From Raillietiella orientalis (lineage: Eukaryota): a stretch of DNA of 64,000 bases. The notes beneath the pieces were generated by a model. It did not search any database and was not told the DNA's origin. It saw only the letters and a program-made list of their open reading frames with translations. The position numbers were made by a program, and so were the translations under genes. How positions within the stretch are numbered: the first letter of the stretch is position 1; every line of letters starts with the position of its first letter. Positions 14,057 through 36,500 of the stretch are shown here, piece by piece. Where the stretch lies: the NCBI GenBank assembly GCA_036172245.1, contig JAYWIR010000034.1, positions 1,860,001 through 1,924,000 of the forward strand, read 5' to 3'.

Positions 14057-17000
14057 TCACTGGTAGGGCCGGAGCAGGGTCGATGTGCTGCGCTCTGAAC
14101 AGTAGAGGCTGTTGCTGGCGTTGATATCGTTCCTCCTGCAGCACAGAATGGCGGCGTAACCCCCGCGGAAGGAGGAGCTTCTGAGGGCGTAGATGATGGG
14201 GGTGATGGCGGAGTTGATGTACCCGCACCAGTAGACCTGCGACGAGGTGCAATGAGGCCCTCGCGGATGAGAAAGGCGCCCCGGACCAGAAGTTTCATCT
14301 CCACTTCCCACGCCCCCACCTACCTCCCGCCCCCCGTTTTCAAGGAAAGGCGGGAGGAAAACCCTCGACCCTTGAAAAGGGGGGGGAAGAAAAAAACAGT
14401 AACCGAAGGGCACCCGGTGGAGGAAGCGGAGGGCGGGGCGTTTCATCCATCTCGCTTCCAGGGTGAGGGGCGAAAGAATTCGAAGGTGGGATTCGAGCAC
14501 GCGAGTGGAAAGGGAGCAGGAGCGGATGCCCTCACCATGGGGTGGGAGGTAAGATGGGTGGTAGGGAAGGAAGTGAGGTGAGAGGGTGCAGCCGGACTTT
14601 CGTCGTCCTTCCCCATTGGAGGATTCTTATAGAGTGTAGAAAAAGGACCATGGGTGGAGTCAGGGATCGGCTTGAGGACGATGATGCGGAGGCGAATGGC
14701 AGCTCGGAAGGGACTGGACACGCGGAGGGCAGGGAGAGGAGAGGAGAACGACCCCAGTTCAGAACCCATTCACGTCTTCTCGTGTTTTGGTCACGTCCCA
14801 CCTGGCACCCTCGTGTATCCTCCGTCCCCTCGACCCCTTCGGGTCGGGGCGAATTGTGACGAGCAGACATACAGGAATTTCCGTTTTCTTGGAGATGTCC
14901 GTGCTGGACTGCCGGAACTCTCGTCGATGTTCCAGGTCGTCCCTCTTCCAGCTCTGCCCCTCCCGTCCCTCCCCACCGTTCTTTCGCGTTCCTCCTCCTC
15001 CAGCAGGGCTGCCGCGCCCCCTCGCCTCGCGGGCTCGCAGGAGCGATCCGCCAGGGATGTTCTCACCGCACCCCTACGGAGGCCGCGGGGAGCTCCTTGA
15101 CTCGCGACTCCGCACCCGCCGGGGTCTCGAGACTCCCAGGACCACGGCCGAACAGCTCCCGTTCTGCCATCGCCTCCTCCCAGAGCACCGTCCCGAGAGT
15201 TTCCTGCGGATCGCCGGCTCTCCTGGCAGCCACCTGGGCTTGCGTAGTCTCCCGTCCCAGTGGGTCGCCAAGCGGCAGCGTCGGCTCCCTCCCGTGACCG
15301 CCGCTTTTCGACCGATGCGGTCGTCTCCGGAGACCCCTCGAAGGAGGTGGAACCGGGGAGCAGGAGCAGGCAGGAGCGGAGAACCTCAGCAGGAAGCTGA
15401 GGTCCTTCGCAGTTTCCTGATACGGGTTCTGAGTGCGCCTCGGACTCAGAAAACGCCCTCTCCCCTTCCTTCTGCCCTCGAAGAGGGGTAGCGCCTTTCC
15501 TGCCACTCCGTCCTTCCAAGATCTCAGCTTTCTTCAACTAAGGTAGTCGTTTGGACTTTTCCTGGATCTCCTTAGCTCCCCTCCTCTTCTCTCCTTCCTC
15601 CTCTTGCTCCTCCTTCTCCCTCCTCTCTTGCATTCCTTTTAGTCTCTGTGGGCCTCATTCAACTCACCGCCTACCTACTTGAGGAAGGCCTTGCTCCAGC
15701 CCTCATTAGAGACGTTCATCATCCCTCGAGAAGAAAGGGTTGGTGCGCAAAGCGTCCGAGGACTCATTTGCTGCAAGAACAGGGGAAAGGAGCAAGCGAT
15801 GTCATGGGCCCAAGGAGGCTTGCGCCCGTGGCAGGAGGATCGCTGCCGACATTCGGCATCAGCCCACCAGAGGGTGGAAGAAGGTGTACTCCACGTTATT
15901 GCTCTTCTGGGAACGTAGAAGCTGGTACTTCGCGGGTCCGGGAATGCAGTAAAGCGTTGTAGGGAGCGGCCCCTCCATTTCATAGAGGCGTTCGGGGAAC
16001 GGAGAATGGGCAAGGAGGAGGGGGAGAGAAGAGGAGGCTGCCTCATGCACGTGTCCCGTCGAGCCGGCATGGGGGAAGGAAGGGGAGGACCTTCCCCAGG
16101 GAAGGCTGAGAGGAGGACGGCGGGAGAGGAGAACAGGCATTCAGTCCTCTTGGGAGCGCCTTCTCGACCAGCCGTCGCGGTAAAGGTTAGACTGGGTTGG
16201 CTGCCTCGGTAACGGAGATCGGGGCAACGGGCTTGGGAGGGGAAGCGATTGGGGAAGAAGAGGGTATGAGGAGGCTGCGGATGGGCTTCTACATACCACC
16301 GGATTGGCGATGGGGTAGACGGACGCTTCCCTCACGGTCAGCCAGATGGAGTAAGCGATGTAGGGCGCCCAACACACCAGGAACACCGCCATGACGATGA
16401 CCAGGGTGATGGCGATGCGCTTTTGCTGGACCACCGTCCTCCCGCTGTCCATGTTGGTGTTGGCGCGCATCCTGGAAGGTGATGAGGCAAAGGAGGGTGA
16501 GGTCTGCGCCCTCCCCATCCCCCATCCCTCCTCCCGGCTCACCTCCTCAGATGGGCGTGTACCTTCCTGAAGATGGTGGTGTAGCACGCGCCCATGACGA
16601 CCAGAGGGATCAGAAAGTTGAAGAGGGTGTTACAGAGGGAGTGGACGTACTGCCTGGAGTTCCTGGGGACGCTGGGCCCGCACTGAGTGGACCCCCTCTT
16701 GTATAGGATCTGCGGGAGGGGACAGGGCTCTCCTGCACGTCCGGAGCGGGGAGCGCCTTACCCCAGGGGGCGGGATCGAGAGAAGCATCCAAGGGACCGC
16801 CTTTATCCCTACTTGGCTTCTTCGGAGGGACAGAGGCTTCATCCCTGCCCTTCTCCGAGCGCTCCCGCCCTCGAGGGAAGGTCGCCCGCCCGGATCAGGA
16901 AAGAGGCTCACCTCGGTCCAGCCGAAGAGTGGGGACAGGTTGTAGGCCACGGGCCATCCCCAGGCGAAGACCAGGGTGAGGGCGATCTGCTTCTTGGTGA

Positions 17001-18369
17001 AGGGTCGGCTCAGGGGCCTGCTGATGGAGAGGCACTTCTGGACGCTGGAAGGCGCGCGGCGGAGTAAGCAAGCGCCCACTCGGGATGTTCATCTCCGGAC
17101 GCAACCTGCCTCCCCCCCCCCTGGATGCTGGCCCAGGCAGGCGGTAGGGAGGGGATAGGAGCTCCCCGCTCCTTCCGGGTCCAGGAGAAGAGGGCTTGAA
17201 GGACGACCCCCTCTTTCGCAGGTTCTTTGCCTCGTCGCTCCGACCCCGGGGAGTCCTGCTGCTTCCCGGGAGGGGCCCAGCCAGCGACCGGGAGCCCTCT
17301 TTGGCCCTCAGGGGAACCGGAGAGTTCTCCTCTCCTCTATTCCCGCCTTGCGAGAGGCTCCCTCGCCACCGCTTTCCTTCTTCGTAAGCGGGAGCCACCT
17401 CCCTCGTCTTCTCGGGCCAAGAAGGAGCATCCCGTCCGCGGGGGAGGGGCCGCGGAGGGGTGGATCGAGTTGCCTCCCCAATACCTCCAGATGAGTCTCG
17501 AGAACCCTGGTCCGGGTAGGGGAGCAGCTGGGAGGAAAGTTCTCGTTCGCGCCCCCTGCCCTGCGGGTGGGCGCGACATCACGGAGCCTGGCGGTGACCT
17601 TGGCTGTCCAGGAGACCCCCAAGGCGGAGGCCGGTGCCCGGGGGGAGAGAAGGGGACGGGGTCAGCGCGCCAAGGCCGAGCCGCTGGAAGGGCAGGACCA
17701 CAGAATTCGAAAGCGAGGTCAAGCGGCGGCCGCCCCCAGGGTGAGTGGCAGGAAGCGAAAGGGCGGGCAGAGACAAAGGGAGGGGAGGGGTCAAGGCGGA
17801 CCTGCAAGGGAGAAAGGGGGGAGACCGCGGGAACAGCAGGGGACGGGGAGGGGAGAAAGGGGGCGAAAGTGGGGAGAAAGGGGCGACGGGAGGAGCGGAA
17901 AAAGCAGCAGGTGGGCAAGGTCGCGCAGGCGTAATAGGGCGAGAAGAAAGGCTAGGGAGAGGAACCCAACCACCCACTCCACCCCCCCTTACCTCATCCA
18001 CATGAGAGTGTGGATGGACGCCATGAAGGTCAGCCCCACCATGAAGGCGTTCACGTAGCAGAAGGCGCCGCCCAGCACCCACGTGCCCATGACGATGGTG
18101 GTCAGGGCCACGGGCATGGTGCAGAGGGCGGTCAGGAGGTTGGCGACGCTCAGGCTGGCTAGGAAGAGGTTCGTCCCGGTTCGCATCGCCCGGCGCTTCC
18201 AGATGATGGCGATGACCATTGCGTTCCCGACCACCGCCAGGACGATGATGACCGCCATGATGAAGGCCATGGCGGTCACGAACAGGGGCGGGAAGCGGTA
18301 GACGGCGTAGCCAGAAGGGGTAGCAGGCCCAGCCTCCCCTTCCGACTCTCCTTCCGCGACGGTCGCCAT
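14057..18369 (-). CDS. Class A (rhodopsin-like) orphan G-protein coupled receptor
   Basis: Phase-consistent exons 18369-17993, 17044-16912, 16709-16543, 16471-16297 and 14236-14057/14061 encode seven TM helices. TM1 VVGNAMVI, TM2 NLFLASLSVAN, ECL1 WVLGGAFC, TM3 end SIHTLMWMSVQKCLSISRPL, TM4 W, ECL2 TQCGP, TM5 FLIPLVVMGACY, TM6 FLVCWAPY, TM7 YINSAITPIIY, helix 8 FRGGY plus CC. The C-terminus either stops at 14057 or splices at the gtgagt donor at 14060. Confidence 0.92.
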
Positions 18370-21300
18370 GCCGCGGGACGGTAGCCAGGGGGGGGGAGGA
18401 GGGGGCGAGAAGGGGTCGCCGCTGCGCCCGGGACGAGGCTGCGAGCTCATCGCGCGCTCGGCCCGCACTGCTCGCGCCAACAGGCGTGCGGGGAGGGTGC
18501 TGCCTCTGGAAGTACAGGCGCTCCCCCCCCTCCTCCTCTTCCCGTTCCGCCCCTTCCTCTCGGAGGAGGAAAGGCGAGCAGCCGCTTCCCGGAGTCTTCC
18601 TTCCCCCGGGGACGGCCGTCCCGCGTCTCCGGACGTTCGGGAGCGGAGGCGGGGGGGGAGATGTGCGCGGTCCTGGAGGGGAGGAAGCTGCGGCCGTGGA
18701 AACCGGGAGGAACGGAGGAACCTCCTCTTCTTCTTCTCGGATGGGCGCCGCGTCCCCTCCGACCATGCAGCCCCGGATAGGGCAAGGGCAGTCCTCCCCC
18801 TCCATTCGTCCCGTTCCGCAGCCCTGCACCCGGAAGGAGGGAGGGAGCTGTCCGGCGAGGCAGGACGCATTCCCCGCTGCGGCCCCACTCGGATACCGCT
18901 GTCCTCCCCCTGATCGGAGTCGCACTCCTCCCTCCTTAGGGAGAAGCCGACCCCTTCCCCCTGGCTCCTCCCTCTTGCAGGGGCCGCCCCAAATTCAGGG
19001 GAGAAGGGAGTGCGCTCCTCCCCTCGCTCCGAGGGGGGATTCCCCCCCTCAGGGGGAGGAGGAGAGCGGTGTTCCTGAACCCGAATCGGGTGCCGAAGCA
19101 CCCACAGGCGGGAGCCTCCGGGATGGCGCCAACGCGGAGGTGGTCACGGCGGTAAGAGAGGTGAAGACCTCCTCCGCCCCTTCTCCTGTGGGGCAGAGGA
19201 GGGTCCTGGATCTCCCTGCGTACGCTCGGGTGCCCCCGTTCTTCGATCGGGCTGGCAGGCTGCCCGGCGGTGGGTCGGCGGCTACTTGTCCAATAGGTGG
19301 CCGAGGCCACGGGCTACCCAAGGTGCTGCCGCTGCCGCCGCCGCCGCCGCGACGGGCGGCCCGAGCCGCGCAACCCCGGGGTCGGGTGCGAAAGAGGCGA
19401 GCGAGCGCATGGGAAGGGGAGGAGCCGCCGCGCGTCTCCGCCGCTCCCAAGAGCCCGGGAGAGTCGTTACCCACGGAGACGTCTTCCGAAATAGGCAGGT
19501 TGCCTGTTGCCAGGCGACGCGCTCGTTCGCCCGGAGGGGGAGGACGGGCGGAGGCGGCTCCTCGGCAAGTCGCGGAGGATTTCCGCCCTCGGAGTTGGCG
19601 GTTGCCCGCAAGGGCGCTTTCGGGGCCCGCCGTCCTCGCTCGGAGGGACGGGGGTCGCTCATTTGGACTGCGCCCAAGCGTGGAGCGGTTCAAAGGGAGC
19701 AGGAGGGAGGAGAGAAGGCAGAGTGGAGATGGCCGTGCGCCTCCGGGTCGCCCGCGGGTGTTCCCCTCTTACGTGAGCCCTCCGAAAGCCGGGAGCCTGT
19801 TCCGGAAGAGCGCCTCTGGGTGCCCGAGGGAGCGTCGGCGGGGAAGGGAACGCTCTTGCCGGAGCGCCGGGAAAAGCTACCGGGGACGAAGGAGCAGCAG
19901 CTCGTCCCGCCCACACACAGACCCGCGTCTAGTTTCGGAGGGGAGGGGGCGCAGACCCAAAGAGGGCATGGTCTGCGGCGTCTCCGGTGTCCACAGCACC
20001 GTGGCGGCGTTCGGCCGCGAGAGCAGCAGCACCGCGAACGTTGCCATGACGATCGCTAAGCCGAGACAGGCTTACGTCACCGGAGGCGCGCAAGCGCGGG
20101 ACTCGCGGATCCACGCCGAGCCTGTTTGCACGTCTCCCCTCCCCTCCTCCCTCTTCCGTTCTTTTTTTCCTTTTTTGCTGTTGTTTTTTTGCTTTTCCCC
20201 ACTCCTCCACTCCCCCTCCCCTTTTTTTACACCCCTCTTCCTCTCCGAGCTCTCGAAGCGGCAAGAGCGGAGGGTCGTCGTCGCATACGGAGACGTCCGC
20301 CTTCTTCCTCTTGGAAGCTGGGAGGACGCCGGCGGATCGCGGCCGCTTCCCTGCGTCGTCGTCGAGTGCTCAGGTCGAGCGCCAATCGCTCGAGCGCTCG
20401 TGCGAGCGGGAGGTACCACCGAACCCTCGGCTGGGGAAGCCAGGGGTTCGGTCTCCCACATAGCACGCCGCCCGGAAACGAGGCGCCCCCCGGGTCGACT
20501 CTTCCCCTGAAGGGATGGCAACGGCAGAGAAGCAGTCTGGATCCTCGCGAGGCGAGGAGCGTCCAGACGAACAACCCCCCTGCCATCTTTGCTCCCTTCC
20601 TGCAGAGAGGCAGCCGTGCTGAGCGGGAACCGGTTCCTGCCGTGGGAGGGGAGCGACGCACGCAGGAGGGCAGGGGTGCGTTGGGAGGAATGGAGAGGAG
20701 CCTCGCCGCCGCCTCCTGTCTGCCCCTGCGGGTGGCTCCCTCTCTGCCCCGGTGGGTCGCCTCCGGGCCGAAGATTCCTGCACGTGCCCCCCAGGCGTCG
20801 CTGGGAGCTCGGGAGGGGAAGCAGCATCGCGTCGCCATCTCGCGCTCCTCTTGCTCATCCCGGCGATGCGTCGTCGTCAGCTGCGACTCTCGAAGGGTCC
20901 GCGAGCGCAGCCTCTCGCGGATCGCCCTCGCTAAGCTCTCCGCCTGGAGGGAGAACGGAGCGAAAGAAAGCGGTGGCAGTGGGGGAGGGAAACCCTGTTT
21001 TTGTCGTTTCGTGTTGTGTTGTTCGAAGCAAAGGACCAGAGGCGCTCTGAGATGAGGTGGGCAGCATCTTGGAGCAGAGTCGCTGTCCGAAGGTGGAACC
21101 GCTCTCCACAAAAGAGGGGAGGAGGAGGAGAGGGGGGCGCAAGGAAGAGGAAGGGAAGCCGCCTCACTCGCTGGAGGGACGCGTTTCTCCTTCCATGAAA
21201 ACAAGGAAAGCGAAAGATCTCTTAGTCGGAGGCGACTGACGTCCTTCTCTCGCGTCGGGTGATCGTGGGAAGGCAGGCGCACCCACCTCTCCGCACCTCG

Positions 21301-22538: not shown

Positions 22539-23908
22539 TCAGCCATAGGTAGTCAGTGGAGCCTCGTAGGTTTCTGCGGGTGCGCTGTAAGAGGCAGCTG
22601 GGGCGCTGTAGGAGGCGGATGGAGCACTGTACGAAGCAGCTGGGGCGCTGTAGGAGGCGGATGGCGCACTGTACGAAGCAGCTGGGGCGCTGTAGGAGGC
22701 GGATGGCGCACTGTACGAAGCAGCTGGAGCGCTGTAGGAGGCGGCTGGAGCACTGTACGAAGCAGCTGGGGCGCTGTAGGAGGCGGCTGGAGCACTGTAC
22801 GAAGCAGCTGGGGCGCTGTAGGAGGCGGATGGAGCACTGTACGAAGCAGCTGGGGCGCTGTAGGAGGCGGATGGCGCACTGTACGAAGCAGCTGGGGCGC
22901 TGTAGGAGGCGGATGGCGCACTGTACGAAGCAGCTGGGGCGCTGTAGCTTGCTGATGGCGCGCTGTAGGAAGCGGCCGGTGCGCTGTAGGAGGCGGATGG
23001 TGCGCTGTAGGAGGCGGATGGCGCGCTGTAGCTTGCTGATGGCGCGCTGTAGGAGGCGGCCGGTGCGCTGTAGGAGGCGGATGGCGCGCTGTAGGAGGCG
23101 GATGGTGCGCTGTAGGAGGCGAATGGCGCACTGTAGGAGGCGGATGGCGCGCTGTAGCTTGCTGATGGCGCGCTGTAGGAGGCGGATGGCGCGCTGTATG
23201 TGGCAGCTGGTGCGGCAGCTACTCGTCGTGCAAAGCCGGCTGCCGGCGCTCTGTAGCTGGCTGATGGCGCCGAGTAAGAAGAAGAAGGACGTCCTGCTCT
23301 GCGTGCAAAGGTGTTAGCTGGCGCAGCGGCGGGCGCTGAATAGGACGAGGAAGGGGCGGAGTATCTCCTGGCTCCGCGGACCCCAGCGCCGTAGACTCCT
23401 TGCTCTGGAATGGGATCCACTTGTCAGGAGACGCCAGGTAGCAAGCGCTCGCGCTCGTCCGCAAGACATCCTCAACGTTCGCCTTGGCGCCTTTCCCCGC
23501 TCACCCTCTGCGTTCTCCCTACTCCGGGACGGGGAGCCGACCTTTGCTTCAGGAACGGGAAAAGGAGGTTCACGCAAAGATCTCCCATCCCACCTTTCTT
23601 GAACGGCTGCTGCTGCTCGAGACCGCAGGATCGGAGTAGCGGTTTCCTGCTGTTTCACGGCGCCGTCCGCCCCGCTGCCCCCGCGAAGACAAGACGAGAG
23701 AGAACCTCCGGGTCGCGCTCCCGAGAGTCTCAGGGAGCACGTCCCGGAGGGGGAGCTGGATTCCCTCGTGACGACCCCGAGGTCCTGCGGGGGAGGCACC
23801 CGCTCGCAGTACTAACCTCGGCGGCGAATGCGCGCAGCAGCGTGGGGCGGCGCAGCCCCAGAGCTCACCTGCCAGGCTGAGGCATAGCAACAGCAGCACC
23901 ATCTTCAT
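22539..23908 (-). CDS. Secreted Ala/Pro/Ser/Tyr-rich repeat protein (cuticle/structural-type, no chitin-binding RR domain seen)
   Basis: Signal-peptide exon 23908-23869 (MKMVLLLLCLSLA, phase-1 G|gtgagc; alternative ATG at 23926). Main exon ~23419-22539 (VDPIPEQGVYGAG...(APxASYS)n...ETYEAPLTTYG*). A possible intermediate exon lies near 23784-23706. TATA-like AATAAATA at 24007-24014 and a polyA signal are present. Confidence 0.82.
22582..23212 (-). repeat. Coding tandem repeat, 21-nt unit (APSASYS/APAASYS), about 30 copies
   Basis: Read directly in DNA and translation. A 42-nt dimer periodicity is visible at ~22590-22940. Confidence 0.95.
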
Positions 23909-24997
23909 CCTCGTGTCGAAGAGCATGTTGACCTCCTTGGCGATCCCTAGTCACGTCCTTGCACGTTCGTCCCGACTCGATTGTCCCGTGACCCCTTTTC
24001 GTCTCGTATTTATTGTGGCGGCCCACGCCGGAGAGGGAAACACATGACGCGCCAGGAATTCCCCGCAGCCTGCGCGCGCCGCCAGAGAGAAAGCGCCGAA
24101 AGGGCGCGGGCTGTTTGTCTGAGAGGGCGCTCGGACACTCCCACGAACGGCCTTCCAGGTCGAGGACGCGCGGGCGCCGTGGGTTGCAACGCCGCCCCAG
24201 CCTCCCGGAGCGCGCAGAACGCGTTCCGCCCGTCTCGTAGGGTACGACGCAATGAGTGCGCAGACCCGCCCCCCCTCTCAAAGGGCACGAGCGCCTGCGG
24301 TTCCTTACATATCCCGAGAAGCTGAACCCAAGCCCCTGGAGAGCGGATCCAGGGAGGGGCGTTGCCTAAGGCTTCTCAGAGGGAGAAGAGCCCTCCCTTT
24401 ACCCGGGTCGTACCGTGCAGGGGGCATCTCCTCCCCCGGTGCCCGTTCCAGAAAACTGGTTCGTGGGCAATTTTTGCGCTCGAGTTCTCCCGTCGACGCG
24501 CTGATCCCAGACGGCGCTCTCTCCTACCTTACACGCGCACAGGAGGACCGCCTCCCTGAACCCAGTGGATGGCCGAGGCAGTCGGGGAAAGGGACAAGCC
24601 GCTTCCCGCGGCAGCGACGGCCGGCTAGTCGCCAGGAGACGGTCCGTCCGTTCGCCCGGCAGGAAGACTCGCCCTACCCTCCCTCCTCTCGGCCAACGCG
24701 CGCAGCCCGGCGCCTCCCGCCTGTCCGGGAGCGAAACCCCGCCCGCAGGGGGTAGGAAGCCTCCGGGACCCATTGCGAGGAAAGGGGTCGGGGGAACGCG
24801 CCCACCACCGTCCGTCCTGGGCCCTCACCGTGGTTACGCGGGTCCCACGCCTCTGCCCGAAGGCGCCCCTCTCCCTACGGATGCGACGGAAGCAGGGCAC
24901 AGGGAGGGGCCGGCAGGAGCAGACCGGGACGCGCGGGCGGCGCCCGGTTGGCCGACCCGGACTCAGCCCTGGCGTCTCGTCTCCAGCACGCGCTCAG

Positions 24998-25003
24998 TTT
25001 ATT
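24998..25003 (-). terminator. Polyadenylation signal of the acidic/basic block protein gene
   Basis: AATAAA on the minus strand about 200 nt downstream of the stop at 25205, in otherwise GC-rich DNA. Confidence 0.55.
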
Positions 25004-25204: not shown

Positions 25205-28200
25205 CTAGGGGTTGGCCGGCAGGTGAGGCGGCACCAGGGCGGTCTGCAGACGGGCCCGGATGGCGGTCGCGGCTGCCGCAGTGATCTCATGGGGCGCCTT
25301 CCTTGTGAGGGAGGCCCCTGCCTGGGCGTTGGAGGCACGGAGAGGAACCGCAGAGGGCCTTCGGGAAGGGTGCGCCACCGCAGGCACCGCCCTGTAGTGC
25401 ACCTGTGTCGAAGGTCGCGTCGCAGACACCGACGTCCTATGAGAGCGGACCGGTAGCACCATTGTCACCACCTTCCGGTGGCCATACGTGGCTTCTCGAA
25501 CCACCGGCACCACTTTCCGATGAGCATATGTAGCTGGTTTGACTACTGGCACCACCTTCCTGTGGGCATAGGGGGCTGTTCGAACCACCGGCGCCACCTT
25601 CCGGTGGACATGAACGGGTGATCTCACCACCGGCACCACCTTCCGATGAGCATAGGTCGCTGGTTTGACTACTGGCACCACCTTCCTGTGGGCATAGGGG
25701 GCTGTTCGAACCACCGGCACCACCTTCCGGTGGACATGAACGGGTGATCTCACCACCGGTACCACCTTCCGATGAGCATAGGTCGCTGGTTTGACTACTG
25801 GCACCACCTTCCTGTGGGTATAGGGGGCTGTTCGAACCACCGGCACCACCTTCCGGTGGACATGAACGGGTGATCTCACCACCGGTACCACCTTCCGGTG
25901 AGCGTAAACGGGTGATCTCACCACCGGCACCACCTTCCGGTGAGCGTAAACGGGTGATCTCACCACCGGCACCACCTTCCGGTGAGCATGAACGGGTGAT
26001 CTCACCACCGGCACCACCTTCCGATGAGCATAGGTCGCTGGTTTTACTACTGGCACCACCTTCCTGTGGGCATAGGGGGCTGTTCGAACCACCGGCACCA
26101 CCTTCCGGTGAGCATGAACGGGTGATCTCACCACCGGTACCACCTTTCGGTGAGCGTAAGCGGGTGCTCGCACCACCGGTACCACCTTCCGATGAGCATA
26201 GGTCGCTGGTTTGACTACTGGCACCACCATCCGGTGGGGATGGGTGGTTGTTCGAACCACAGGCACCACTTTCCGGTGAGCATAAACGGGTGATCTCACC
26301 ACCGGCACCCTCTTCCGGTGAGCGTAAGCGGGTGCTCGCACCACCGGCACTACCTTCCGATGTGCATAGGTCGCTGATTTGACTACTGGCACCAGCTTCC
26401 GGTGGGGATGGGTGGTTGTTCGAACCACCGGCACCACCTTTCGGTGAGTGTAAACGGGTGCTCGAACCACAGGCACCACCTTCCCATGAGCATAGGTCGC
26501 TGGTTTAACTACTGGCACCACCTTCCGGTGGGCATAGGTTGATGCTCGAACAACTGGCACCACCTTCTGGGGTGCGTAAGTTGCAGGTTTGACCACCGGC
26601 AGCGCCTTGTGACGAACGTAAAATGCAGGTTTGACCACCTTGTTGTGGGCAATGGCTGCTGATCGAATCACTGGCACCACTTTGCGGTAAGCGTGGGCTA
26701 CTGGTCTAGCCACCAGTACCTCCTTGTGATGAACGTAGGCCACTGGTTTGGCCACCGGCACCACCTTGCGGTAAGCGTGAGCAGCTGGTCGAACCACCAG
26801 CACCTTGCCGTGAGCATAGGCAGGTGGTCTCACCATCGGCACCACCTTGGGATGAACGTGGACTGCTGGTCGCACCACCGGCACCACTGCGTGGGACGGC
26901 TGCAGGAGCACAGTCTTGTGATGGACGGCGTGGGGCGAGGGGCGCACTGGTGGCGCCACCACCACTTTGCGGACCGAGGCAGCGGGAGATACCCTCAAGG
27001 AATGAGGGCGACTCGGCGCTCTGGGCGCCGTCTTATGGGAGACGTGTTTGCGAGTTGCCAAGGGTGCGGTCGAGACCCCGTACCAGACGACGCGCGGACT
27101 GGGAGCGTGAGAGGCACCGAAGAGGGTTGCGGGCGGCGGCACAGCGCCGCCAGACGCGGAGTGCGCCGAGGAGACATACTGAAGGACCGTGTGGCGGCTC
27201 GGAGGTGGCGGCTGGCGCTTGTAGGCGTATGACGGGGAGGGGGGCCCCGCATAGGAGTAGGCCGCCACGAGAGGTCGGTTGACGGCGTAGTGGGCGGAAG
27301 GAGCTGCCGTCGCGCGAAGGGGGTAGCCCGCGGCAGGTGCAGCAGGCACGACCTTCGTTGCGTAGTAGACCGGCGATCTTCCAGGAAGAGGAGCGTAGCC
27401 TGCAGGAACGACTGCCGGAGGGACGCCTCCGTAGGTGACCCGAGGGGGCACTAGTCCACCCGGAGGAGGCAGGTAGGGAGCGTGGGGAACCTCCTGTTTC
27501 TCCGGCGATGGCTGCTCCGTGCTGCCTTCCGCCGGTTTTTCGTCAGGTGGTTTGCTGGTTGGCTCTTCGGTGGCGCTCGCGTCCGTGGTCTGCGGTTCCT
27601 TTTCGGAGTCTTCCTCCGCGGAAGCATCATCGGGCATGGATTCCTCGTCTTTATCCTCTTCTGGAGGGGCATCATCGGGCATGGATTCCTCCTCGGTGTC
27701 CTCTTCTGGAGGGGCGTCATCATCGGGCATGGGCTCCTCGTCTTTATCCTCTTCTGGAGCTGCATCATCGGGCACGGATTCCTCCTCGCTGTCCTCTTCT
27801 GGAGGGGCATCGTCATCGGGCATGGATTCCTCCTCGGTGTCCTCTTCTGGAGGGGCATCGTCATCGGGCATGGATTCCTCCTCGGTGTCCTCTTCTGGAG
27901 GGGAGTCATCATCAGGCATGGATTCCTCCTCGGTGTCCTCTTCTGGAGGGGCATCATCGGGCATAGGTTCCTCGTCTCCATCCTCCTCTGGAGGGGCTTC
28001 ATCATCGGGCATGGCTTCCTCCCCGGCATCTTCTGGAGGGGCATCGTCATCGGGCATGGATTCCTCATCGCCTTCCCTCTGAGCAGCGACTTTCAGGTTT
28101 GTCTCAGACTTGGAAGGCTGCAGTCGAAGACGCTTCTCTCCTGAAAGGGAAAGTAGGTGGCTTCGACAGGAGTCAACCTGGGAGAGCAGCCCGCCTCCAA

Positions 28201-29271
28201 CACTTCTAGGCACGTCTGCAGCAGTCGGAGGAGTCACCCCCGCCGCCTACCCCGCTTCTCCCCCCCTGAGGGAAGCTCCAGAAGATGGGCTACTAGAGAG
28301 AAGGGAAGCTCAGATGACCCTTCCGCAGTAGTGGGAGTAGAGAGACCCTCGAAGCGGGTTCGCATCGCCCGCGGCCGGGCGAGAGGCGACCGCAGGCGGT
28401 CACTGGGGAGGCCGTTGCCAAACGGGAGAGGTGCTAGACGGGCGAGGAACAGGGGGTCCTCTCTGGAAGGGGTGCTCCGGGGCCTCCCCCACGGGATCCT
28501 ATAGCAGAGCGGATTTCGCGGGGCAGGAACCCGAAGAGGGGGTGGGGAGGCAGAAGTCCGACCTCATCGCCAGGCCTGCCTCCTCCCCATGAGGAGAGCG
28601 CCAGAGTGATGGGAGAAGAAGGCTAAGGCTGCTGCTGCCCCTCCAAGACCCCGGAAGTGCGAAGACGCCCGAGGATCCGCCACCCCACGCATTTTCCCCA
28701 GCGCCCTCTCCTTCTGCCGTTCTCCGGGCGAGGCCTCCACGGAGCCCCGCAGCGAGGAGGTCTCTAGGGGCAGCCATGCGGGGTGCCAGGACTTCCCTCG
28801 GGATGTGGGTCGGATCTTCCCGCCGCCACCGGGCCCCAGCACCCCTTACATTTCGCCCCCGGAAGAGGGAGGGGTCTTGGAGGACCAGGAGGGAGGGGCC
28901 ACTCGCCACCCGCGCCTCCCTGCCACCCAACCCGGCCCGCCCATCCCCGCTGGGAGGGGTCGGAGGCGCACTGTAATGGACCTTTCCGAAGAATAGCGGA
29001 AGTTGACGGCGAAGGGCCACGATCCCGGCTCCGGGAGGGGGCCATCCCTCCTCTCAAGGAAGGAGTCGGATTTCCGCGACCCTCACCCTTCTTTCCCTGG
29101 AGAAAGGCGGGGCAGGGAGGCGGTGGCGGGCGGCGGCGGCGACGGTCCCGCCCCCCTGCGAGCGCCGTCGCGGTGGTGCTGCTGCGCGCGCGCGCGCCTA
29201 CCTGCCGCTCCGAGAGCCACCAACGCCAGAAGGGCAGCCGCCGCCGCCGCCGCCGCCGCCGCGCTTCGCAT
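25205..29271 (-). CDS. Secreted ~1000-aa block-structured low-complexity protein (acidic repeats, Pro/Ala/Tyr linker, His/Arg/Lys/Val repeats)
   Basis: Signal-peptide exon 29271-29202 (MRSAAAAAAAAAALLALVALGAA, phase-1 G|gtagg). Possible 42-nt exon 28292-28251. Large exon 28140-25205 after a ctttcag acceptor, in phase with the 1010-codon ORF. TATA-like CATAAAAA near 29363-29370 and a polyA signal at 24998. Confidence 0.85.
25460..26895 (-). repeat. Coding tandem repeat, 42-nt unit (HRKVVPVV-R/K-xxx-Y/H-A), about 35 copies with higher-order structure
   Basis: Counted in translation. Variant tails RSPVHV/RSPVYA, RTAPYA, KPATYA, RAPAYA and RTTTHP recur in ordered blocks. Confidence 0.95.
27601..28066 (-). 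repeat. Coding tandem repeat, 45-48-nt unit (EESMPDDDAPPEEDTE), 10 copies
   Basis: Counted in translation of the 25205-28237 ORF and visible in DNA (ggcatggattcctcctcggtgtcctcttctggagggg...). Confidence 0.95.
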
Positions 29272-32200
29272 CTTCCTCGGGAGGGGATGTTGACCTGCAG
29301 GCCGGTGACTTCCTGGTCCCGCGCCGCCTCTGGTATTAAGGGCCCCGGCCAGCCTAGGAGTCTTTTTATGCGCCCTCGCAGGTGCCAATGACCACCATCC
29401 GAGGAGGAGGCGGCCGAAGACTCGCGCGGTGGGCGGGAGCGAGAGTGTAGGGCCGCCCCCTTGTCGGTCCGGAGGGAGCGGCCCCACGCGCCCGCCCCCA
29501 CTCCGCTTCCCCCTTCCTCCTTCTCCAAGGCAGCGACAGCCGGAGGCGGAGGGGCGACGCTCCCTGGAGTCTTCCCCCGCCCCCCTCTCCTCCCTCCTCG
29601 GCCCACCCCCTTTCCTAGAAGGGGACTCCACCGCTCCTCTCCGCACTCGGCCGGCGACCTCCACAGGGATCTCCGACCGGATGCGGAGCAGCGCCCTCTG
29701 CGCCCATGTTTTCCCCCGTTTACCCTCTAGCAGGGGCACCCCCCAGTGACGGAGGGTAAATCCTCCCCAACTACAGGGCGGAGCGGCCTCCTTCACCTGC
29801 CCGCTACTGTTCCTCGGGAACTTCCAGGGTGAAAGGCAGAAGGAAGGGGTCGACCGGGGTCAGGGACGCGCTCCCCAGTAGCTCCCCTGGGGGCGAAGCG
29901 TGGTCGGATCGGGGGTCTCCCCGCCTTCCCCTTGGAAGCAACTCCGTCAGTCGCGGCGGCGTCACATGATCTCCCCGCCCGCCCTTGGCGCTCCGGGGAT
30001 CAACGAACCGCCCCAGTCTGGAGGGGGAAGGCTCGCCTCGGGCGCCTCGGACGGGGGAAGGGAGGGGGAGCGTCAACCCTCCGGCTCCGAAGAGGGAGGA
30101 GCAGGTGAGGGGGAGCCTCAGAAGGGAACGAGCGCCTTGTCCCTACTCCCTCTTTCCACCGGAGTGGGGAGGGGGGGCGTCGGCGACCGGGAGCTGTCCG
30201 TCCCTCAAAGAAAGGGGAGGGAAGGAGGGGGAGGAGACTACAGAAAGAGAGAGTGGAGGGAGGAAGCAAACTGCGCCGGGGGCGGAGGTCAAGGGAACGA
30301 CCTCGGTGCACCGCGCCGGGGAGAGAGGAATGTGTTGTCGTCCGGGGACCCTGCCGCGGGCGGACTGCTCCGGGGAGGCGGCGCCCTCGAGCGGGCGGGC
30401 GAGCGCGTTCGGTGCCCCCGTTGGGCCGCCGCCTCGCCGCTTCTCCTTCTGAGTCCCCCTCCCTCCTTCCCCCCTCCTCCCTTTCTCCTCCTCCCCTCCC
30501 TCTCTCCCTTCGTTTCGCCTTTCCCGCCGCGGGCAGCTCGCCACCGGGGAAGCCAATGGGGCGCCTCCCTGCTGCCGCCGTCGCCGCAGCAGCGGCGACG
30601 GCGGCAGCGCAGACCGCCATCTTGGTTGCGGCCAGGAGGCACCTCTTTTCGCCGCGGACTGACCGCCGCTCCCGGGGGATCCAGCACCCGCAGGCTGCTC
30701 CCGGGAACGGGCAGATCGGCACGGGCGCACGCACCTCTGGGAGGTCCCCCCCTCGCAGCCTCTCGCCGGCCCTCTTTTGCCGGGGGACTGGCGGAACACG
30801 CACCGCACTCCCTGCTACAAGGGTTCACCTCGCGGGGCGGGGCGGAAGGAGAGCGGGGCCGGTGGATGGGAGCAGAGGGCGCTGCTCGACTGCGCCCAGC
30901 AGCTTCCCTCTTTCTTCCCCTTGGTCCTGGTCCCTCTGGACACTCTCCCCACGGAGCCCCCCTGTCCCCGCGGCTGGACCCCCACGCATGATCCTGAGCG
31001 CGGAACGAGTAGGCAGACCGAAAACGACGCACCCGAGGGTCTGCCTCTCTCCCTTCGTCCTCTTCTTCCCGGACGAAGCCTGCAGGACTCCCCCTGGCCG
31101 CACTGCCGGCGGCCACAGGGACTCGGGCGGGCAGACCTGGTAGGGCCCGCCACTTTTTCCAGCCCCTTCCGAGGGAATACAAACCCCGGAGCATTCGATA
31201 GTTCCCCTGGACCCCAGCGCTTAAGGGCCGTGCGAACTTTCCCAAGGGGAGGAGGACCAGAGGACAAGGGCAAACAGGAATTCCAGAGCGCCCGGAGTGT
31301 TGCTCGGCGGCTACGGGTCTCCCGGGAGAGAGGCTGACCACTGGGCGCGGACGGAGGACAGAGAGAACCGGGTGGACGGAGTCGCTTCCCTAGATGACGA
31401 CCAGGAAGGGGTGGGAGGGAAGCTGCGACAGCGGTTTCGGCCCCTGCCCCGGAGCTGCGGAGCGAAACCTCCCTCTCAACCCTGCGGATCGAGGCGGCGG
31501 CGACGAGCGCACGCCCTGGAGGGGGGGGGTCGCTGCCAGAGCCACCCTGGGGCAGCAGCGAACCGGAAGCGTCCGATGCGAGCGCAGCGGCGACCGGCAG
31601 CCACCGCCGCCGCACGAGGATGGGCTCGACGGGGGGCCTCTGAGTTTCGCGGTGCCGCGCCGTGACCTGAGAGCAGGCGGTCGACCAGCGACCGCCGCAC
31701 TGCGTTCCCCGCCGAGAGTCGCCGCAGGCCCGCCATTGGCCTGTCCACGGAGGCGGTAGTGGTGGTGGTGGTGGAAAAGGTGGTTGTGGGGATTCCCTTC
31801 TCCACCATCTGCCGACAGACGGGACCCAAAAGCCAGCCGCTCCACCCTCCGCGTCCGAGAGACCTCGAGGAGGAGGGCTGGCGAACCCGGAAGCGGGCAG
31901 AGAACGGGAGCCCTCCAGGAGGGTGGAGATGCGATGAGGAGGAGGAACGCTGGAGGGGCCGGGAGGCACCGTCCGCAATCCCGGGCCGGACTCTAGAACC
32001 CTGGCAGGCGCGATGGTTGCCTCGCCTGGACCCCGCCTTCGGGGTCTGGGAGCCTTTCCCGTCGGCTCCCCGGTCAGCACCGGAACTTTCGAAGGTTCCC
32101 AGCAAGCGGGAGGGCGGGAAAGAGCGAAGATGCTTCCCGAATCCGTCCGTTCGTCACAAGCAGACCTCTGGCCTCCGTCCCCATTTGCATGCTGCCTGTC

Positions 32201-32714: not shown

Positions 32715-32795
32715 TCAAGGTCGCCGACATCCCCGGCGCCTCGTAAATACTGTTAGGCGGAGGGTCACGGACACGTGACCCCCGCGGATAAAAAA
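32715..32795 (+). promoter_or_regulatory. Putative core promoter with nuclear-receptor-type motifs
   Basis: TCAAGGTCG (FTZ-F1-type YCAAGGYCR) at 32715-32723. Inverted repeat GGGTCACG-gaca-CGTGACCC at 32762-32781 containing CACGTG. TATA-like GATAAAAA at 32787-32794, about 80 nt before the ATG at 32870. Confidence 0.45.
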
Positions 32796-32869
32796 TCCTG
32801 GGAGGGCGGGAGCGCCGGGGAGTTTTCAGCGGCGCCTCGACCTGCTCAGATCCATTCCAGACGCCGAGG

Positions 32870-33529
32870 ATGAAGCGCGCCGCTCTCGTCTTGCTGCTGG
32901 TGCTGGAGGTCGCACGTAAGGGATTTGCTCGATTTGCTCCCCCTCCACCTCCACCCCTCCGTGGGTCCTTCCTCCCCCCGCGCGCGACCCGGTCCAGTCT
33001 CCTCAAGGACGGGGGGGAGGAGGCAACCCGCCCTCGGCTTCCCTCCCTCCCTCTTCCCCACCCTCCCCTTTTTGTCGCGGTGGCGACTCCCTCTCCCCAT
33101 CTCTCACCTCTCCTTCTTCTTTCCCTAGTCGGGAGGTTCCTGGAAGGCGAAGTCTACGCTCCCGTGTCGGAGGAGGAGAAGGGTGAGGCGGAAGCGACCA
33201 GAGGAGAGGGACAGCCCTCCCCGGCCGGCGTGGAGGACGCCCCGTCCGAGATGGTGGCTCCTCCCCCGGGAGAGGAAGAGGAGGAAGAGGCGGCGGCTGC
33301 CGCGGCGGCGGACACCGGCGGGGAGGAGGAGACGCCGGCGCTGCAGATCGACCAGGACGAGCTCGAGGAGGCAGTGGCGCTGTCGATGAGCCCGGCCTAC
33401 TCCGAGGTCTCCAAGATGCTGGAGTCGGCCGACCCGGAGGAGCTGGCTCTGGGCACCGTTCTGGACGACCGATCCGACCCCGCGCCAGTGGCCGACAGGG
33501 AGGGCGAAGACGCGTCCGCCTACCACTAG
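32870..33529 (+). CDS. Small secreted highly acidic protein (148 aa)
   Basis: Exon 32870-32915 (MKRAALVLLLVLEVA, phase-1 C|gtaagg), a pyrimidine-rich 213-nt intron ending ccctag, and exon 33129-33529 (LGRFLEGEVYAPVSEEEKGEAE...DQDELEEAVALSMSPAYSEVSKMLESADPEELALGTVLDDRSDPAPVADREGEDASAYH*). Strong GC3 codon bias; AATAAA at 33714-33719. Confidence 0.8.
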   Translation: MKRAALVLLLVLEVARKGFARFAPPPPPPLRGSFLPPRATRSSLLKDGGEEATRPRLPSLPLPHPPLFVAVATPSPHLSPLLLLSLVGRFLEGEVYAPVSEEEKGEAEATRGEGQPSPAGVEDAPSEMVAPPPGEEEEEEAAAAAAADTGGEEETPALQIDQDELEEAVALSMSPAYSEVSKMLESADPEELALGTVLDDRSDPAPVADREGEDASAYH

Positions 33530-36500
33530 GAATCGGGTGGATCCGCGCTTGGAGCCCCGGGCCCCCGCCGCCCAGAGCGCGCGCGCCACCACCACGCCCG
33601 CCGAAGCCGCACCCGCTCAGCGCCAACCAACAGGGTCCCTGGAGTCCGAAGGTCCATCCCGGAAAAACCACGGCTGGGTCGAAGCTGCTCGGGAGGTTCA
33701 GCAGCCAAAAAAAAATAAAAATAAAAAGTGTGAAAATGGCAAAAAAAAGAAAGAAAGAAAAGAGGGGCAAAGGCAGAGGTCATTCGAGGGGCGCGTCCTC
33801 GACTGACCAAGGGCAACTTCAGGTGCGTCCGCGACTGAGGGCTGCAGAGAGCGCCACTCATTTCTCGTCGGAAGACGAAAACAAAACGGGGGGAAGAGGG
33901 GGGGAAGGGGGGCAGTGCCCGAGGCCCCCTCCGCGGGAGACGCCACGCGCGTCCCAACTGCTCGGAAGGGGAAAGCAACAGATCCTTAAGGTTTCCAGGA
34001 GGTGGCGGCCGTGCGGATGAACGCGGACGGTGGAAGGCCACGCAATTCTCCTCCTTCCTGGCCGCTGCCGCCGCTCCCTGAGAGGGAGCAGGGTAAGAAG
34101 CGATCCACCTGACCGGGAGAGACGGAAACAGCCGCTGCCTGTTTGCGCGGTGTAGGACTCGGTCACGCAGCATCAATGAAACAGCGTCGTGCGCGGGAGG
34201 CATTAGCTCGGAGCCACGGTCCAGAAGGCGCCGCCTCTCCTGCAGGAAGCGGGTCAGGAGATCGGAGCCCCCCCCCACGAAGTTCTGTCCCGCATCCCCC
34301 CGTGCCCGCGGTGCGCGGCAAAGACCCGTAAGCCCACCCGCGGGTCGCTTGCCGTTCTGCGATCAGTCAGAAACGGCGGGAGCGCCCGTCGCTGCGCAGC
34401 AGCACCACCACGGTGCCGCCGAAGCAGTCGCCGCTAATTCTCTCGAAGGGGGCGCGTGCACGAAGGTGAGGGAGGAGCCACGTGGGTTGACGGCGGTAAG
34501 CGAGATGGTCCGCGCGCCAGATCGCTCGCTCGTTTCCTCTCCCACTCCCTCGCTCTCTCGCATGCGCGCACGCCAAGGGGTCGCTGAAGATGGGAGAGGG
34601 AAACGCCCTCTCCGACGAAAGATGCGACACGGTCACTTTCCCGGCGAGCACGGGGGGAGCGTCTAGCGAGGAGCCGCCTCCACCTCTCTCCACCTTCTCC
34701 CTTCGTTGGACAGGCGCCTCTCCCGCGCGTTTCTTGCTTTCTTCCCCCCCCCCCCCCCCACCGGACACGCATTCGGCAAGAAAGGCAGAAAGCAGAAGAT
34801 GCGCTGCCTCGTCGGAAGCTGTAAAAGTGCTGCTGCTGCTACGGGCGCTGCTAATCGTCTGTTAGTGCATCAACGTTAATGAGGGCGAAGGGAGCCGCCG
34901 CGCACGGGGTAGCGGAGGGGAGTCTCTGCAGGAGCAGGAAGGCCTTCTGGCGATGGGAATTCCTCCTTCCCTCTCTCAGCTTCCAGAGAAGATGATGGAG
35001 GCGGCTGGTTTGCGGAACGAGAGCGTCCTTCTGTTTAGAGAGATGGCCTCTTCCCGGCACGACCTGGAATCGAGTGGATGGCCCTCTGCCGAGCTCTCCT
35101 TCAAAGGGAACGCCCCGCTTCACGGTCGCAGGGGGAAAGCAGCCGGCAGCCTCCCGAGATCGGCCCTTTGCCTCATCCGGCCCTTTTCATCGCGTTCGTC
35201 CGCCCGCAAACTCGCGCGGTGCTTTCGCGGAATTCCAGCGGGAAAGACGCACGTGGATCCCGCGCAGACCGCGTCCCGCGAGCACTCTCGCTTTCCCGTT
35301 CCTCTGGGCCGGCCTCTCGCCGAATCGGATGCCGGGCTCAGTGCAGACCCGCGCTACAAAACAACCCGCCTTGAAATCATCGGCGAATTCTTCTTCTTCC
35401 TCGTCTTCTTTTTGTTGCGTTCTATTTCGTTTTGTTTTTCCTTCCTCGTGACTGTTGCTGATCGCTCTTTTTTCCTTGAGACTTCGAGGCGCGCCGTGAG
35501 GTAGCGCTCCCCTGCTGGCGAAGCGGGCGCAATTCGTCTGAGTCCCTGCTGGAAGTTCGAGCACCCGGCCCAGGTGAATTCCTCCTTCTGCGGCCGCGGT
35601 CGGCTCTCGGGCGGCGCTGAGACGCGGACTTTGGTTTCTCGCTCGATGCCTGGTTGCTGCCCTTCGGTCTCTGCGGTAGCGGACCACGAAACGGTGGCGA
35701 AGTGAGCGCGTTCGTGCACTTCCGTTTCCCTTCATCCTGGATTTCTCCCTTCCTCCTTCGCCCTTCCCATCCTCCTCCTCCCTTTTTCAGATGCAGAGGC
35801 GATTCCCTGTCTCCGGCTTCGTGGCGCCGCGAGAGGGCGCAGACAGTATGCCGCAGCCGCCAGCCCGCAACGAGGGAAAGGTCGCTTTGCGGGCGGCCGT
35901 TTGGCTTTCGGCGGCCGTGTGCGAGAGGGGAGGCTGCCCAACTCCCCTCGGCGCACGCCGGACGAGTCGACTCCGCATCGGAATTCCCCTCGTCGCGGAG
36001 GGAACGAACTTTCCGTCTAAGCAGCAGCGTCCCCCGGTGGAGCCGAACTTCTTCCGAATGGACCTCCAACGTGTCCGCCGGAGCCCACCGCGGGCTCCTC
36101 GCGAAGAGCCGCTCTGCTTAGGGTGCGATGCCGTGCCGTCTCTGCAGGCGACGGGCGCGCGCGCGCGTCCTCCCCGGACCTACGGCGCAGCCCAGCAACA
36201 GCCGCGCGTCGCGACGGCAGTCAGCCGCCACGAGCAGGGAGTTCCAGGAAGCGCACGTGCGTAGCGAGCAGCACGCGTTTCATCGGGACCAGGACGACAG
36301 GTCACCGCCTCGCGGAGGAGGAGGAAAGCCGCCGCTCCCGAGAGAAAGGATGGGGGAAGGGAGGGGAAGAGGATGATCCCGATGGGCGCTCCCGTACCCC
36401 GGAATGGGCAGCGTCTCTCCGAGACGCGGCCACGGCGATGTGGGAAATCGGAGTAAGTCTCAGATCGCAGGAGAATTTTCCAGCGACGCCTCCCGGGAAT

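Follow-up and report, generated by a model that had tools for sequence, protein, structure and literature searches.

The question raised by this stretch of the Raillietiella orientalis genome is whether a long open reading frame (ORF), in which an acidic repeat block is followed by a basic one, belongs to a working gene, and what kind of protein it would make. The stretch, referred to below as the window, is 64,000 nucleotides (nt) long and corresponds to positions 1,860,001 to 1,924,000 of the forward strand of contig JAYWIR010000034.1 (assembly GCA_036172245.1). The frame lies on the minus strand and is referred to as gene A; two neighbors are referred to as genes B and C. The favored reading, which we consider evenly poised between right and wrong, is that gene A is an intact, selectively maintained gene of a crustacean-like arthropod and that its product would be an orphan protein of the extracellular matrix, of the low-complexity kind found in cuticle, made together with the products of the two neighbors.

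The minus-strand ORF (25205..28237) lies in a frame that is open from 28246 to a TAG stop codon at 25207-25205, a length of 1010–1013 codons. It can be read as the second exon of a two-exon gene with the following parts:

29362..29370, minus strand: TATA-like box CATAAAAAG, 92-99 nt 5' of the gene A ATG, read from the sequence
29202..29271, minus strand: exon 1, 70 nt, with the ATG at 29271; predicted to encode MRSAAAAAAAAAALLALVALGAA(G), with a phase-1 end and the donor GTAGGC
28141..29201, minus strand: putative intron, 1061 nt, GT..AG, with a polypyrimidine tract 5' of the acceptor
25205..28140, minus strand: coding part of exon 2, 977 amino acids (aa), the TAG stop codon at 25205-25207 included
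24998..25003, minus strand: AATAAA polyadenylation signal, 202 nt 3' of the stop codon

The acceptor, CTTTCCCTTTCAG, stands directly before 28140, and its phase-1 junction with exon 1 keeps the gene A frame, giving a spliced coding sequence of 3006 nt, or 1001 codons. The intron has no codon-position GC periodicity. Three stop-free, ATG-started phase-1 exons with a GTRRG donor are found in the 3.3 kb 5' of the acceptor, and exon 1 of gene A is the only hydrophobic one among them. A scan of both strands of the whole window for an ATG and a hydrophobic core with a donor within 40-100 nt gave five rows (alternative ATGs and donors being counted separately) at three loci, which are genes A, B and C; all three are phase 1, and each lies just 5' of a low-complexity ORF. 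In the peptide of gene A exon 1, a basic n-region is followed by a core of ~19 A/L/V residues and a small-residue c-region (GAAG), with a mean hydropathy of 2.96 over 9 residues; by these features it is a likely signal peptide. Signal peptides that are separated by an exon boundary or interrupted by an intron are common among arthropod cuticle genes. The poly-Ala of this putative signal peptide is encoded by a perfect (GCC/GGC)x8.7 trinucleotide run at 29237-29262, and because of this run, the length of the signal peptide is likely to vary among individuals.

The TATA-like boxes of genes B and C lie at distances from the ATG similar to that in gene A. Of the five AATAAA sequences between 13,000 and 40,000, four follow the stop codons of the three genes at a distance of 82-202 nt, and the remaining one is gene B's own TATA-like box.

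An open frame alone proves little here, because the GC-rich DNA of this region holds many long ORFs and several frames that are open at once. With stop codons at their local frequency of 0.0245, 1010 open codons have a probability of ~1e-11; the runner-up among the ORFs of the GC-rich 31 kb has 728 codons, and several alternative frames are also open across the gene A repeats. However, there is coding constraint across both repeat blocks, in one shared frame. In the HRKVVPVV half of the 25 canonical basic units, synonymous and nonsynonymous differences stand at 51:6 by occurrences and 12:6 by variant types, where a synonymous share of 0.29 is expected (binomial P = 2.6e-21 and 1.1e-3, respectively); the common variants are CAC/CAT, CGG/CGA/AGG, GTG/GTA/GTT/GTC and CCA/CCG/CCT. 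Four of the five other frames over these units show the opposite ratio, and the antisense frame that shares the wobble positions gives 32:10 and is not open. In the acidic units, the ratio is 24:20 against a synonymous expectation of 0.19 (P = 1.3e-7), or 14:14 by types (P = 1.9e-4). The safer counts throughout are those by variant type (12:6, 21:21 and 14:14). The acidic units are only ever 45 or 48 nt long, so that all of their length changes are multiples of 3, and the linker (164 aa) and the tail (84 aa), both non-repetitive, are open in the same frame as the two arrays. Since the differences between repeat units, the lengths of the acidic units, the hydrophobic phase-1 exon and the promoter and 3' signals all agree, gene A very probably exists as a two-exon gene with a secreted product.

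The predicted mature gene A protein has 977 residues, a mass of ~106 kDa and an isoelectric point (pI) of ~9.8, with zero Cys and zero N-x-S/T sequons. Its parts, from the N-terminus on, are:

28076..28138, minus strand: basic N-terminal stub EKRLRLQPSKSETNLKVAAQR, 21 residues, pI 11, charge +4
27494..28075, minus strand: acidic block, 194 aa, 95 D/E, 6 K/R, pI 4.05, charge ~-89
27602-28066, minus strand: 10 tandem EESMPDDDAPPEEDTE-type units within the acidic block, 15-16 aa each
27002..27493, minus strand: Pro/Ala/Tyr/His linker, 164 aa, the first residues being EVPHAPYLPP
25460..27001, minus strand: basic array, 514 aa, 101 K/R, 46 His, 2 D/E; Val 29%, Pro 14%
25481-26530, minus strand: 25 canonical HRKVVPVV(K/R)xxx(Y/H)x units within the basic array, identified with a hidden Markov model (HMM) of the unit; degenerate units lie upstream
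25208..25459, minus strand: non-repetitive basic C-terminal tail, 84 aa

A preliminary description of this locus had proposed the acidic-then-basic architecture, and the ORF, the phase-1 splice and the composition of the blocks confirm it where it had been placed. It had also taken both blocks to be joined; they lie in one exon and one frame, so their joining needs no splicing. The ten tandem acidic units that it had counted are there, but the acidic region continues beyond them to 194 aa. Its figure of ~35 basic repeats is a fair one: the unit HMM marks residues 561-910 as 25 full 14-aa units and residues 414-560 as ~9 degenerate ones, and the last unit is truncated. YLPP does stand among the first residues of the linker (EVPHAPYLPP), as had been pointed out, but an assignment to the YLP motif class does not hold, since there is a single YLP and the Pfam YLP model has no match. 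AAPA likewise occurs once in the linker, and GYR is absent from the protein.

Tandem Repeats Finder detects both the 42-nt and the 48-nt array. The basic array has in addition a higher-order repeat of 126 nt, the copies of which are 95-98% identical. The degenerate units, which are the older ones, have HHK, HPK, HGK, HNK or PQK where the canonical units have HRK, and the unit HMM picks up weak echoes of the basic unit (RSPVY..KVVP) in the linker.

The segregation of charge in the gene A protein is extreme. The sequence charge decoration (SCD) is -112.7, against +9.5 for shuffled sequences, and kappa is 0.335, against 0.174 when shuffled, the highest of 200 shuffles reaching 0.211. The charge of the basic array is +110 at pH 7, +144 at pH 5 and +99 at pH 8.2, a dependence on pH that is due to its 46 His.

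Gene A is probably an orphan without detectable relatives and a member of no named family. A Pfam scan of exon 2 at E ≤ 10 returned 0 families, as did separate scans of the linker and the tail; there was thus no match to the Rebers-Riddiford (R&R) consensus (PF00379, chitin_bind_4) in exon 2, linker or tail, and none to the GYR/YLP models (PF02756, PF02757) in gene A. A word-indexed protein search with residues 190-480 of exon 2 yielded 8000 candidates of length 537-1710, none with E ≤ 0.001, and the ESM Atlas held no usable match to the gene A protein. A HMMER search with the linker, array and tail against 1.84 billion cluster representatives returned 99 matches at E ≤ 0.001, 13 at ≤ 1e-10 and 0 at ≤ 1e-30. 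The best-matching stretches of all these matches begin within the array (query 203-718), and the 11 matches inspected of the 99 are all unrelated tandem repeats of a similar period (a ligand-gated channel fragment, bacterial proteins and others), no search having been made with the N-terminal stub or the acidic block by itself. A text search of the literature for five gene A peptide strings gave nothing relevant among the matches listed, and Rfam had 0 matches in the whole window. That the preliminary description had recognized no named family in this architecture agrees with these results.

Two neighbors bear on what gene A may be for:

22539..23926, minus strand: gene B, directly downstream of gene A on the same strand and of the same two-exon design
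23926-23869, minus strand: gene B exon 1, predicted to encode MLFDTRMKMVLLLLCLSLA(G), phase 1, donor GTGAGC
23404-22539, minus strand: gene B exon 2, 287 aa, (A/S)ASYSAP heptads; A 33%, S 30%, P 13%, Y 13%, pI 9.3
32870..33529, plus strand: gene C, divergent, 3.6 kb upstream of gene A and of the same two-exon design
32870-32915, plus strand: gene C exon 1, predicted to encode MKRAALVLLLVLEVA, phase 1, donor GTAAGG
33129-33529, plus strand: gene C exon 2, 132 aa, 38 D/E, 6 K/R, pI 4.05
29287..29296 and 23925-23934, minus strand: 10-mer AGGTCAACAT, in the presumed 5' untranslated region of gene A and in the start region of gene B

Gene B consists of ~40 heptads with a DNA period of 42 nt (91% matches), has its own TATA-like box and AATAAA (22539-24014) and contains no Pfam domain. 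It has 127 look-alikes at E ≤ 1e-3, and those listed include a "cuticle protein LPCP-23-like" protein (Anastrepha), "cuticle protein 16.5-like" proteins (Musca, Megalopta), a pro-resilin (Melipona), Stomoxys proteins with GYR and YLP motifs (PF02756/PF02757) and a protein of the copepod Lepeophtheirus. An unnamed match bears an R&R domain (PF00379), and another, with an automatic EukProt gene-model name, is presumably from Tigriopus. The arthropod cuticle context that had been suggested for the locus is supported by these SYSAP-repeat look-alikes of gene B, but gene A itself has no cuticle domain. A repeat period of 42 nt, or 14 codons, is found in both gene A (25466-26608) and gene B (22585-23198); the encoded peptides are unrelated, and the shared period may be a coincidence.

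Gene C has a TATA box at its 5' side (locus 32787-33725), AATAAA twice at 33714-33725 and a codon-position GC of 0.77/0.53/0.76. It gave no Pfam match, and its similarity to the acidic block of gene A is not significant (best E 3.5).

The 10-mer AGGTCAACAT has exactly two matches in the window, where 0.07 are expected, and two were reached in 0 of 100 shuffles; the gene B copy runs into the start codon, whose A and T are its last two bases. The shared 10-mer suggests that the 5' ends of genes A and B are paralogous or have a common control element. An alignment of the two 5' regions has a mean column identity of 69%, a figure without a chance comparison that is not used as support. As predicted from their exons and signals, genes A, B and C are a cluster of three genes for secreted low-complexity proteins.

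The GC content of the window ranges from 32 to 70%, being 32-34% at 4-8, 46-52 and 58-62 kb and 65-70% at 16-40 kb. Gene A lies inside a ~30-kb GC-rich stretch full of long non-coding ORFs in all frames, in which AATAAA occurs almost only at the ends of genes. An intron-containing gene for a rhodopsin-family G protein-coupled receptor (GPCR) is found on the minus strand at ~16144-18450, with transmembrane segments TM1-TM3 at ~17992-18300 and TM5 at ~16542-16757. It is ~40% identical to human NPY2R over TM1-TM2 (comparison with the PDB), and GC at third codon positions is 0.89 in its first coding exon. A word-indexed search gave no close relative, and the clusters in the ESM Atlas are chordate and arthropod alike. 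From its sequence, the receptor is not a vertebrate orthologue, and the evidence is enough for no more than that. On the plus strand, at ~54600-54942, are exons of BLOC1S2 (Pfam PF10046, E 9.6e-11), whose sequence has moved far away from that of the human protein.

Several known systems resemble gene A in part. His, Lys and Tyr are implicated in the quinone and dityrosine cross-links of insect cuticle, and low-complexity, non-CPR cuticle proteins, most of which have a pI >8, remain in the pellet of insoluble material (PMC5395146). With laccase2, His-rich proteins of the cuticle form films (PMC8062583). TcCP30 from Tribolium castaneum, with 36% Glu, 21% His and 19% Arg, is cross-linked by laccase 2 with N-β-alanyldopamine (NBAD), probably via His, and is needed for the adult moult (PMC4440208). 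As described there, TcCP30 is like the gene A product in being secreted, of low complexity, without the R&R consensus and rich in acidic and basic residues and His. However, it has only 171 aa, is Gly-rich and has neither a Val/Pro repeat nor separate charge blocks, the comparison being one by description. No beetle protein turned up in the word-indexed or HMMER searches with gene A.

CPLCP proteins are described as having a high content of Pro, Lys, Val and Tyr (PMC12426002). The CPLCP/AAP[A/V]-type and GYR/YLP-motif proteins share with gene A a signal peptide, which in gene A is predicted, a Pro/Lys/Val/Tyr-rich composition and a pI >8, and they are insoluble after sclerotization (PMC12426002, PMC5395146); gene B looks like proteins of these kinds. 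The basic block of gene A has the composition of a CPLCP (Val 29%, Pro 14%, K+R 20%, Tyr 5%), again compared by description. Unlike gene A, none of these proteins is described with an acidic block, and no CPLCP or GYR/YLP protein was among the 11 HMMER matches inspected.

The order of parts has a precedent outside the animals. Sil1p of the diatom Cylindrotheca fusiformis has a signal peptide, an acidic domain of unknown function and strongly basic repeats (PMC4557024), in the same order as the predicted signal peptide, acidic N-domain and basic tandem repeats of gene A. It differs in having 265 aa and seven Lys/Ser-rich units, and it is cut at RXL motifs into heavily modified, silica-precipitating peptides. 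Gene A has no furin-type site and only four KR or RR pairs. The likeness is convergent at most, without a sequence relation, and no diatom protein was among the HMMER matches inspected. The preliminary description had not recognized the architecture from a named family; the lack of such a match stands, qualified by the precedent that Sil1p provides for the order of parts.

A second precedent is proMBP, the precursor of eosinophil major basic protein, a single secreted chain with an acidic pro-part of pI 3.9 ahead of a very basic part of pI 10.9; the arrangement is read as shielding the producing cell in transit (PMC2189086). In contrast to gene A, this vertebrate protein has a folded domain as its basic part, where gene A has repeats, and it is a toxin and not a matrix protein. 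The sandcastle-worm proteins Pc-1 to Pc-5 are, like the predicted gene A product, secreted; they comprise Lys/His/Tyr-rich polycations and a polyanion, and form a structural material via complex coacervation (PMC9999432). However, their polyanion and polycations are separate annelid proteins, DOPA (3,4-dihydroxyphenylalanine)- and Gly-rich, with negative charge supplied by phosphoserine. The charge-block architecture of gene A is unusual among low-complexity, His-rich secreted structural proteins, and convergent precedents exist.

The basic array was modeled with AlphaFold2, run without an alignment on 350 aa of canonical array and on the full mature protein. Each 14-residue unit of the canonical array is predicted to form three short strands; the top-scoring model has a predicted local distance difference test score (pLDDT) of 72 and a predicted template-modeling score (pTM) of 0.67. 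VIA-align ranks β-solenoids first among structures resembling this model: CsgA (8c50_A, Z 22.2, root-mean-square deviation (rmsd) 8.8) and MpAFP (3p4g_A, Z 18.1, rmsd 3.5, 247 residues aligned). These proteins share one repeat per rung with the array model, but at a sequence identity of 3-5% and with a single-sequence, moderately confident model. A 14-residue rung with 3-4 like charges would be unusual for a β-solenoid, and the array model was not reproduced in the full-length run. In that run, the acidic block, linker and tail all have a pLDDT <50, too poor for contacts between blocks to be read. The array may thus be prone to β stacking rather than random coil, with probable disorder elsewhere.

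A possible mechanism can be outlined from these features. Each 14-residue unit would offer His-x-Lys, a further Lys or Arg and usually a Tyr beside a hydrophobic VVPVV strand. The basic array would stack into β-rich rungs, and dozens of its His, Lys and Tyr residues would be available for quinone (laccase) or dityrosine cross-linking. The array fits a cross-linkable, β-prone matrix polymer because of this His/Lys/Tyr and VVPVV content and what the literature says of cross-linking in cuticle. A chain with >130 positive charges would be awkward to secrete. The acidic block (~-89) would neutralize about two-thirds of the downstream positive charge (~+136 at pH 7) and may act as a built-in counter-ion that would keep the polycation in solution and harmless during its passage through the secretory pathway. 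Once secreted, the acidic block might pair head to tail with the basic arrays of other chains and so condense, or bind Ca2+ in calcified cuticle, as proposed for acidic matrix proteins of crustaceans (PMC3335408). It might also be removed by cleavage, for which the KR at residue 331 in the linker is a candidate site.

Taken to its full extent, this would make the gene A product a building material in the form of a natural single-chain diblock polyampholyte. Its acidic block would serve as a switchable counter-polyelectrolyte that holds the array unfolded and soluble inside the cell; after secretion, a change in pH or Ca2+, or cleavage, would free the array to form β-solenoid-like rods or to condense head to tail before covalent curing. 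This is a tentative proposal, and we consider it rather unlikely.

A number of observations weigh against the reading of gene A as a maintained gene for a cuticle-type matrix protein. Gene A is known from DNA sequence alone, and the sequence fits a cuticle, an eggshell, a gland secretion and a mineral store alike. Pfam (0 families) found no chitin-binding or other cuticle domain in gene A, and neither an orthologue nor a paralogue was found by the word-indexed search, the ESM Atlas or HMMER. The link to cuticle comes through gene B, whose own likeness to cuticle proteins is one of repeat composition. The units of the array share ancestry through higher-order duplication, so that counts by occurrence, such as 51:6, make independent events look more numerous than they are. 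Nor is the β-solenoid model a robust one: pLDDT values for the five models are 72, 57.5, 56.4, 26.2 and 24.8, full-length prediction brings the array to only 50-63 and the protein as a whole to a mean of 38, and Foldseek found no PDB match at E ≤ 0.001, its weak rows being left-handed β-helices. The charges, finally, are unbalanced, with a net of +51 at pH 7.

Four other explanations have to be weighed against this reading. Gene A might encode a mineralization matrix protein of a calcifying crustacean, in which the acidic block and gene C would bind Ca2+ and stabilize or nucleate calcium carbonate, with the basic array anchoring the protein in the organic matrix or binding carbonate or phosphate. 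The 95 D/E in 194 aa of the acidic block (pI 4.05) are consistent with this, as are the second gene for a secreted acidic protein (C) 3.6 kb away and the fact that acidic proteins are the class implicated in the control of CaCO3 in crustaceans (orchestin, CAP-1/2, crustocalcin and GAP65; PMC3335408). However, acidity by itself is unspecific, the protein has only four S-x-E sites, so that phosphorylation of the secretory-kinase type would add little, and gene A is dissimilar to any named calcification protein, none having been compared directly; we regard this explanation as unlikely. The order of parts that gene A shares with Sil1p, which is processed into peptides (PMC4557024), lends itself to the idea of a polyprotein precursor, with an acidic pro-region and an array that would be cut into ~35 short cationic antimicrobial or mineral-directing peptides. 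The logic of an acidic pro-part and a cationic mature part is that of proMBP and other cationic toxins (PMC2189086), and there are 29 Arg-Lys pairs in the protein, 28 of them in the basic array and 24 within the 25 canonical units. The expected processing sites are nevertheless lacking: R-x-[KR]-R does not occur, KR or RR is found only four times in 1001 residues, and the dibasic site is not conserved, being replaced by HHK, HPK, HGK, HNK or PQK in the older units. The would-be cut also falls inside HRKVVPVV, the most constrained segment, amidation is not expected because no Gly precedes the basic pair, and the released peptides would presumably be Val-rich and non-amphipathic, all of which makes a polyprotein quite unlikely.

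A secreted adhesive, cement or fiber precursor, in which the two charge blocks would self-coacervate and then be cured as in the cements of sandcastle worms or barnacles, would account for the extreme charge blocks (SCD -112.7, kappa 0.335), for His as a pH switch and for an array that is predicted to be β-prone. In sandcastle-worm glue, secreted proteins of opposite charge make complex coacervates, and barnacle cement forms cross-β fibrils (PMC9999432). In the known cases, however, polyanion and polycation are separate proteins, and the neighbors of gene A look cuticle-like and not cement-like; the protein has zero Cys and only four S-x-E sites, and DOPA or phosphoserine would be modifications invisible in the sequence. 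Such a precursor seems improbable. The last alternative is that there is no functional gene at all, but two minisatellites in GC-rich DNA that leave a long frame by chance, or a young ORF without a role. Long ORFs are indeed abundant in this DNA, the longest outside gene A having 728 codons, the repeats can be read through in several further frames, no homologue was found, and the array is partly young, its higher-order copies being 95-98% identical. Against this stand the synonymous excess and the exclusive indels of 3n in the same frame of both arrays, and the non-repetitive linker and tail, which are open in that frame as well. The exon for the signal peptide, the splice sites, the TATA-like box and the AATAAA each stand where they should, and both neighbors share the design. 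We consider a non-functional frame very improbable.

What would follow for the biology of these proteins depends on how much of the cuticle-type matrix reading and of the diblock proposal holds. Arthropod genomes contain many lineage-specific low-complexity secreted proteins, and because these are so numerous, the value of gene A would lie in its architecture and not in an established function. If it is made as predicted, the protein would be a 100-kDa polymer whose one end has ~-89 charges, while a Val/Pro/His-rich array with 25 near-identical units toward the other end has ~+110. Strong self-association and switching by pH and salt are expected from polymer physics for such diblock designs, and materials scientists build polymers of this kind synthetically. 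If the diblock proposal is true, gene A would combine in one gene what coacervate cements do with two components, and put it to use in an arthropod exoskeleton or mineralized matrix. The cluster, with one acidic protein, one acidic-plus-basic protein and one neutral Ser/Ala/Tyr/Pro protein, would be a compact natural system in which to test charge-driven assembly. A natural arthropod example would provide a handle on how polycationic structural proteins stay harmless during secretion, and would also show how low-complexity cuticle proteins may assemble without chitin-binding domains.

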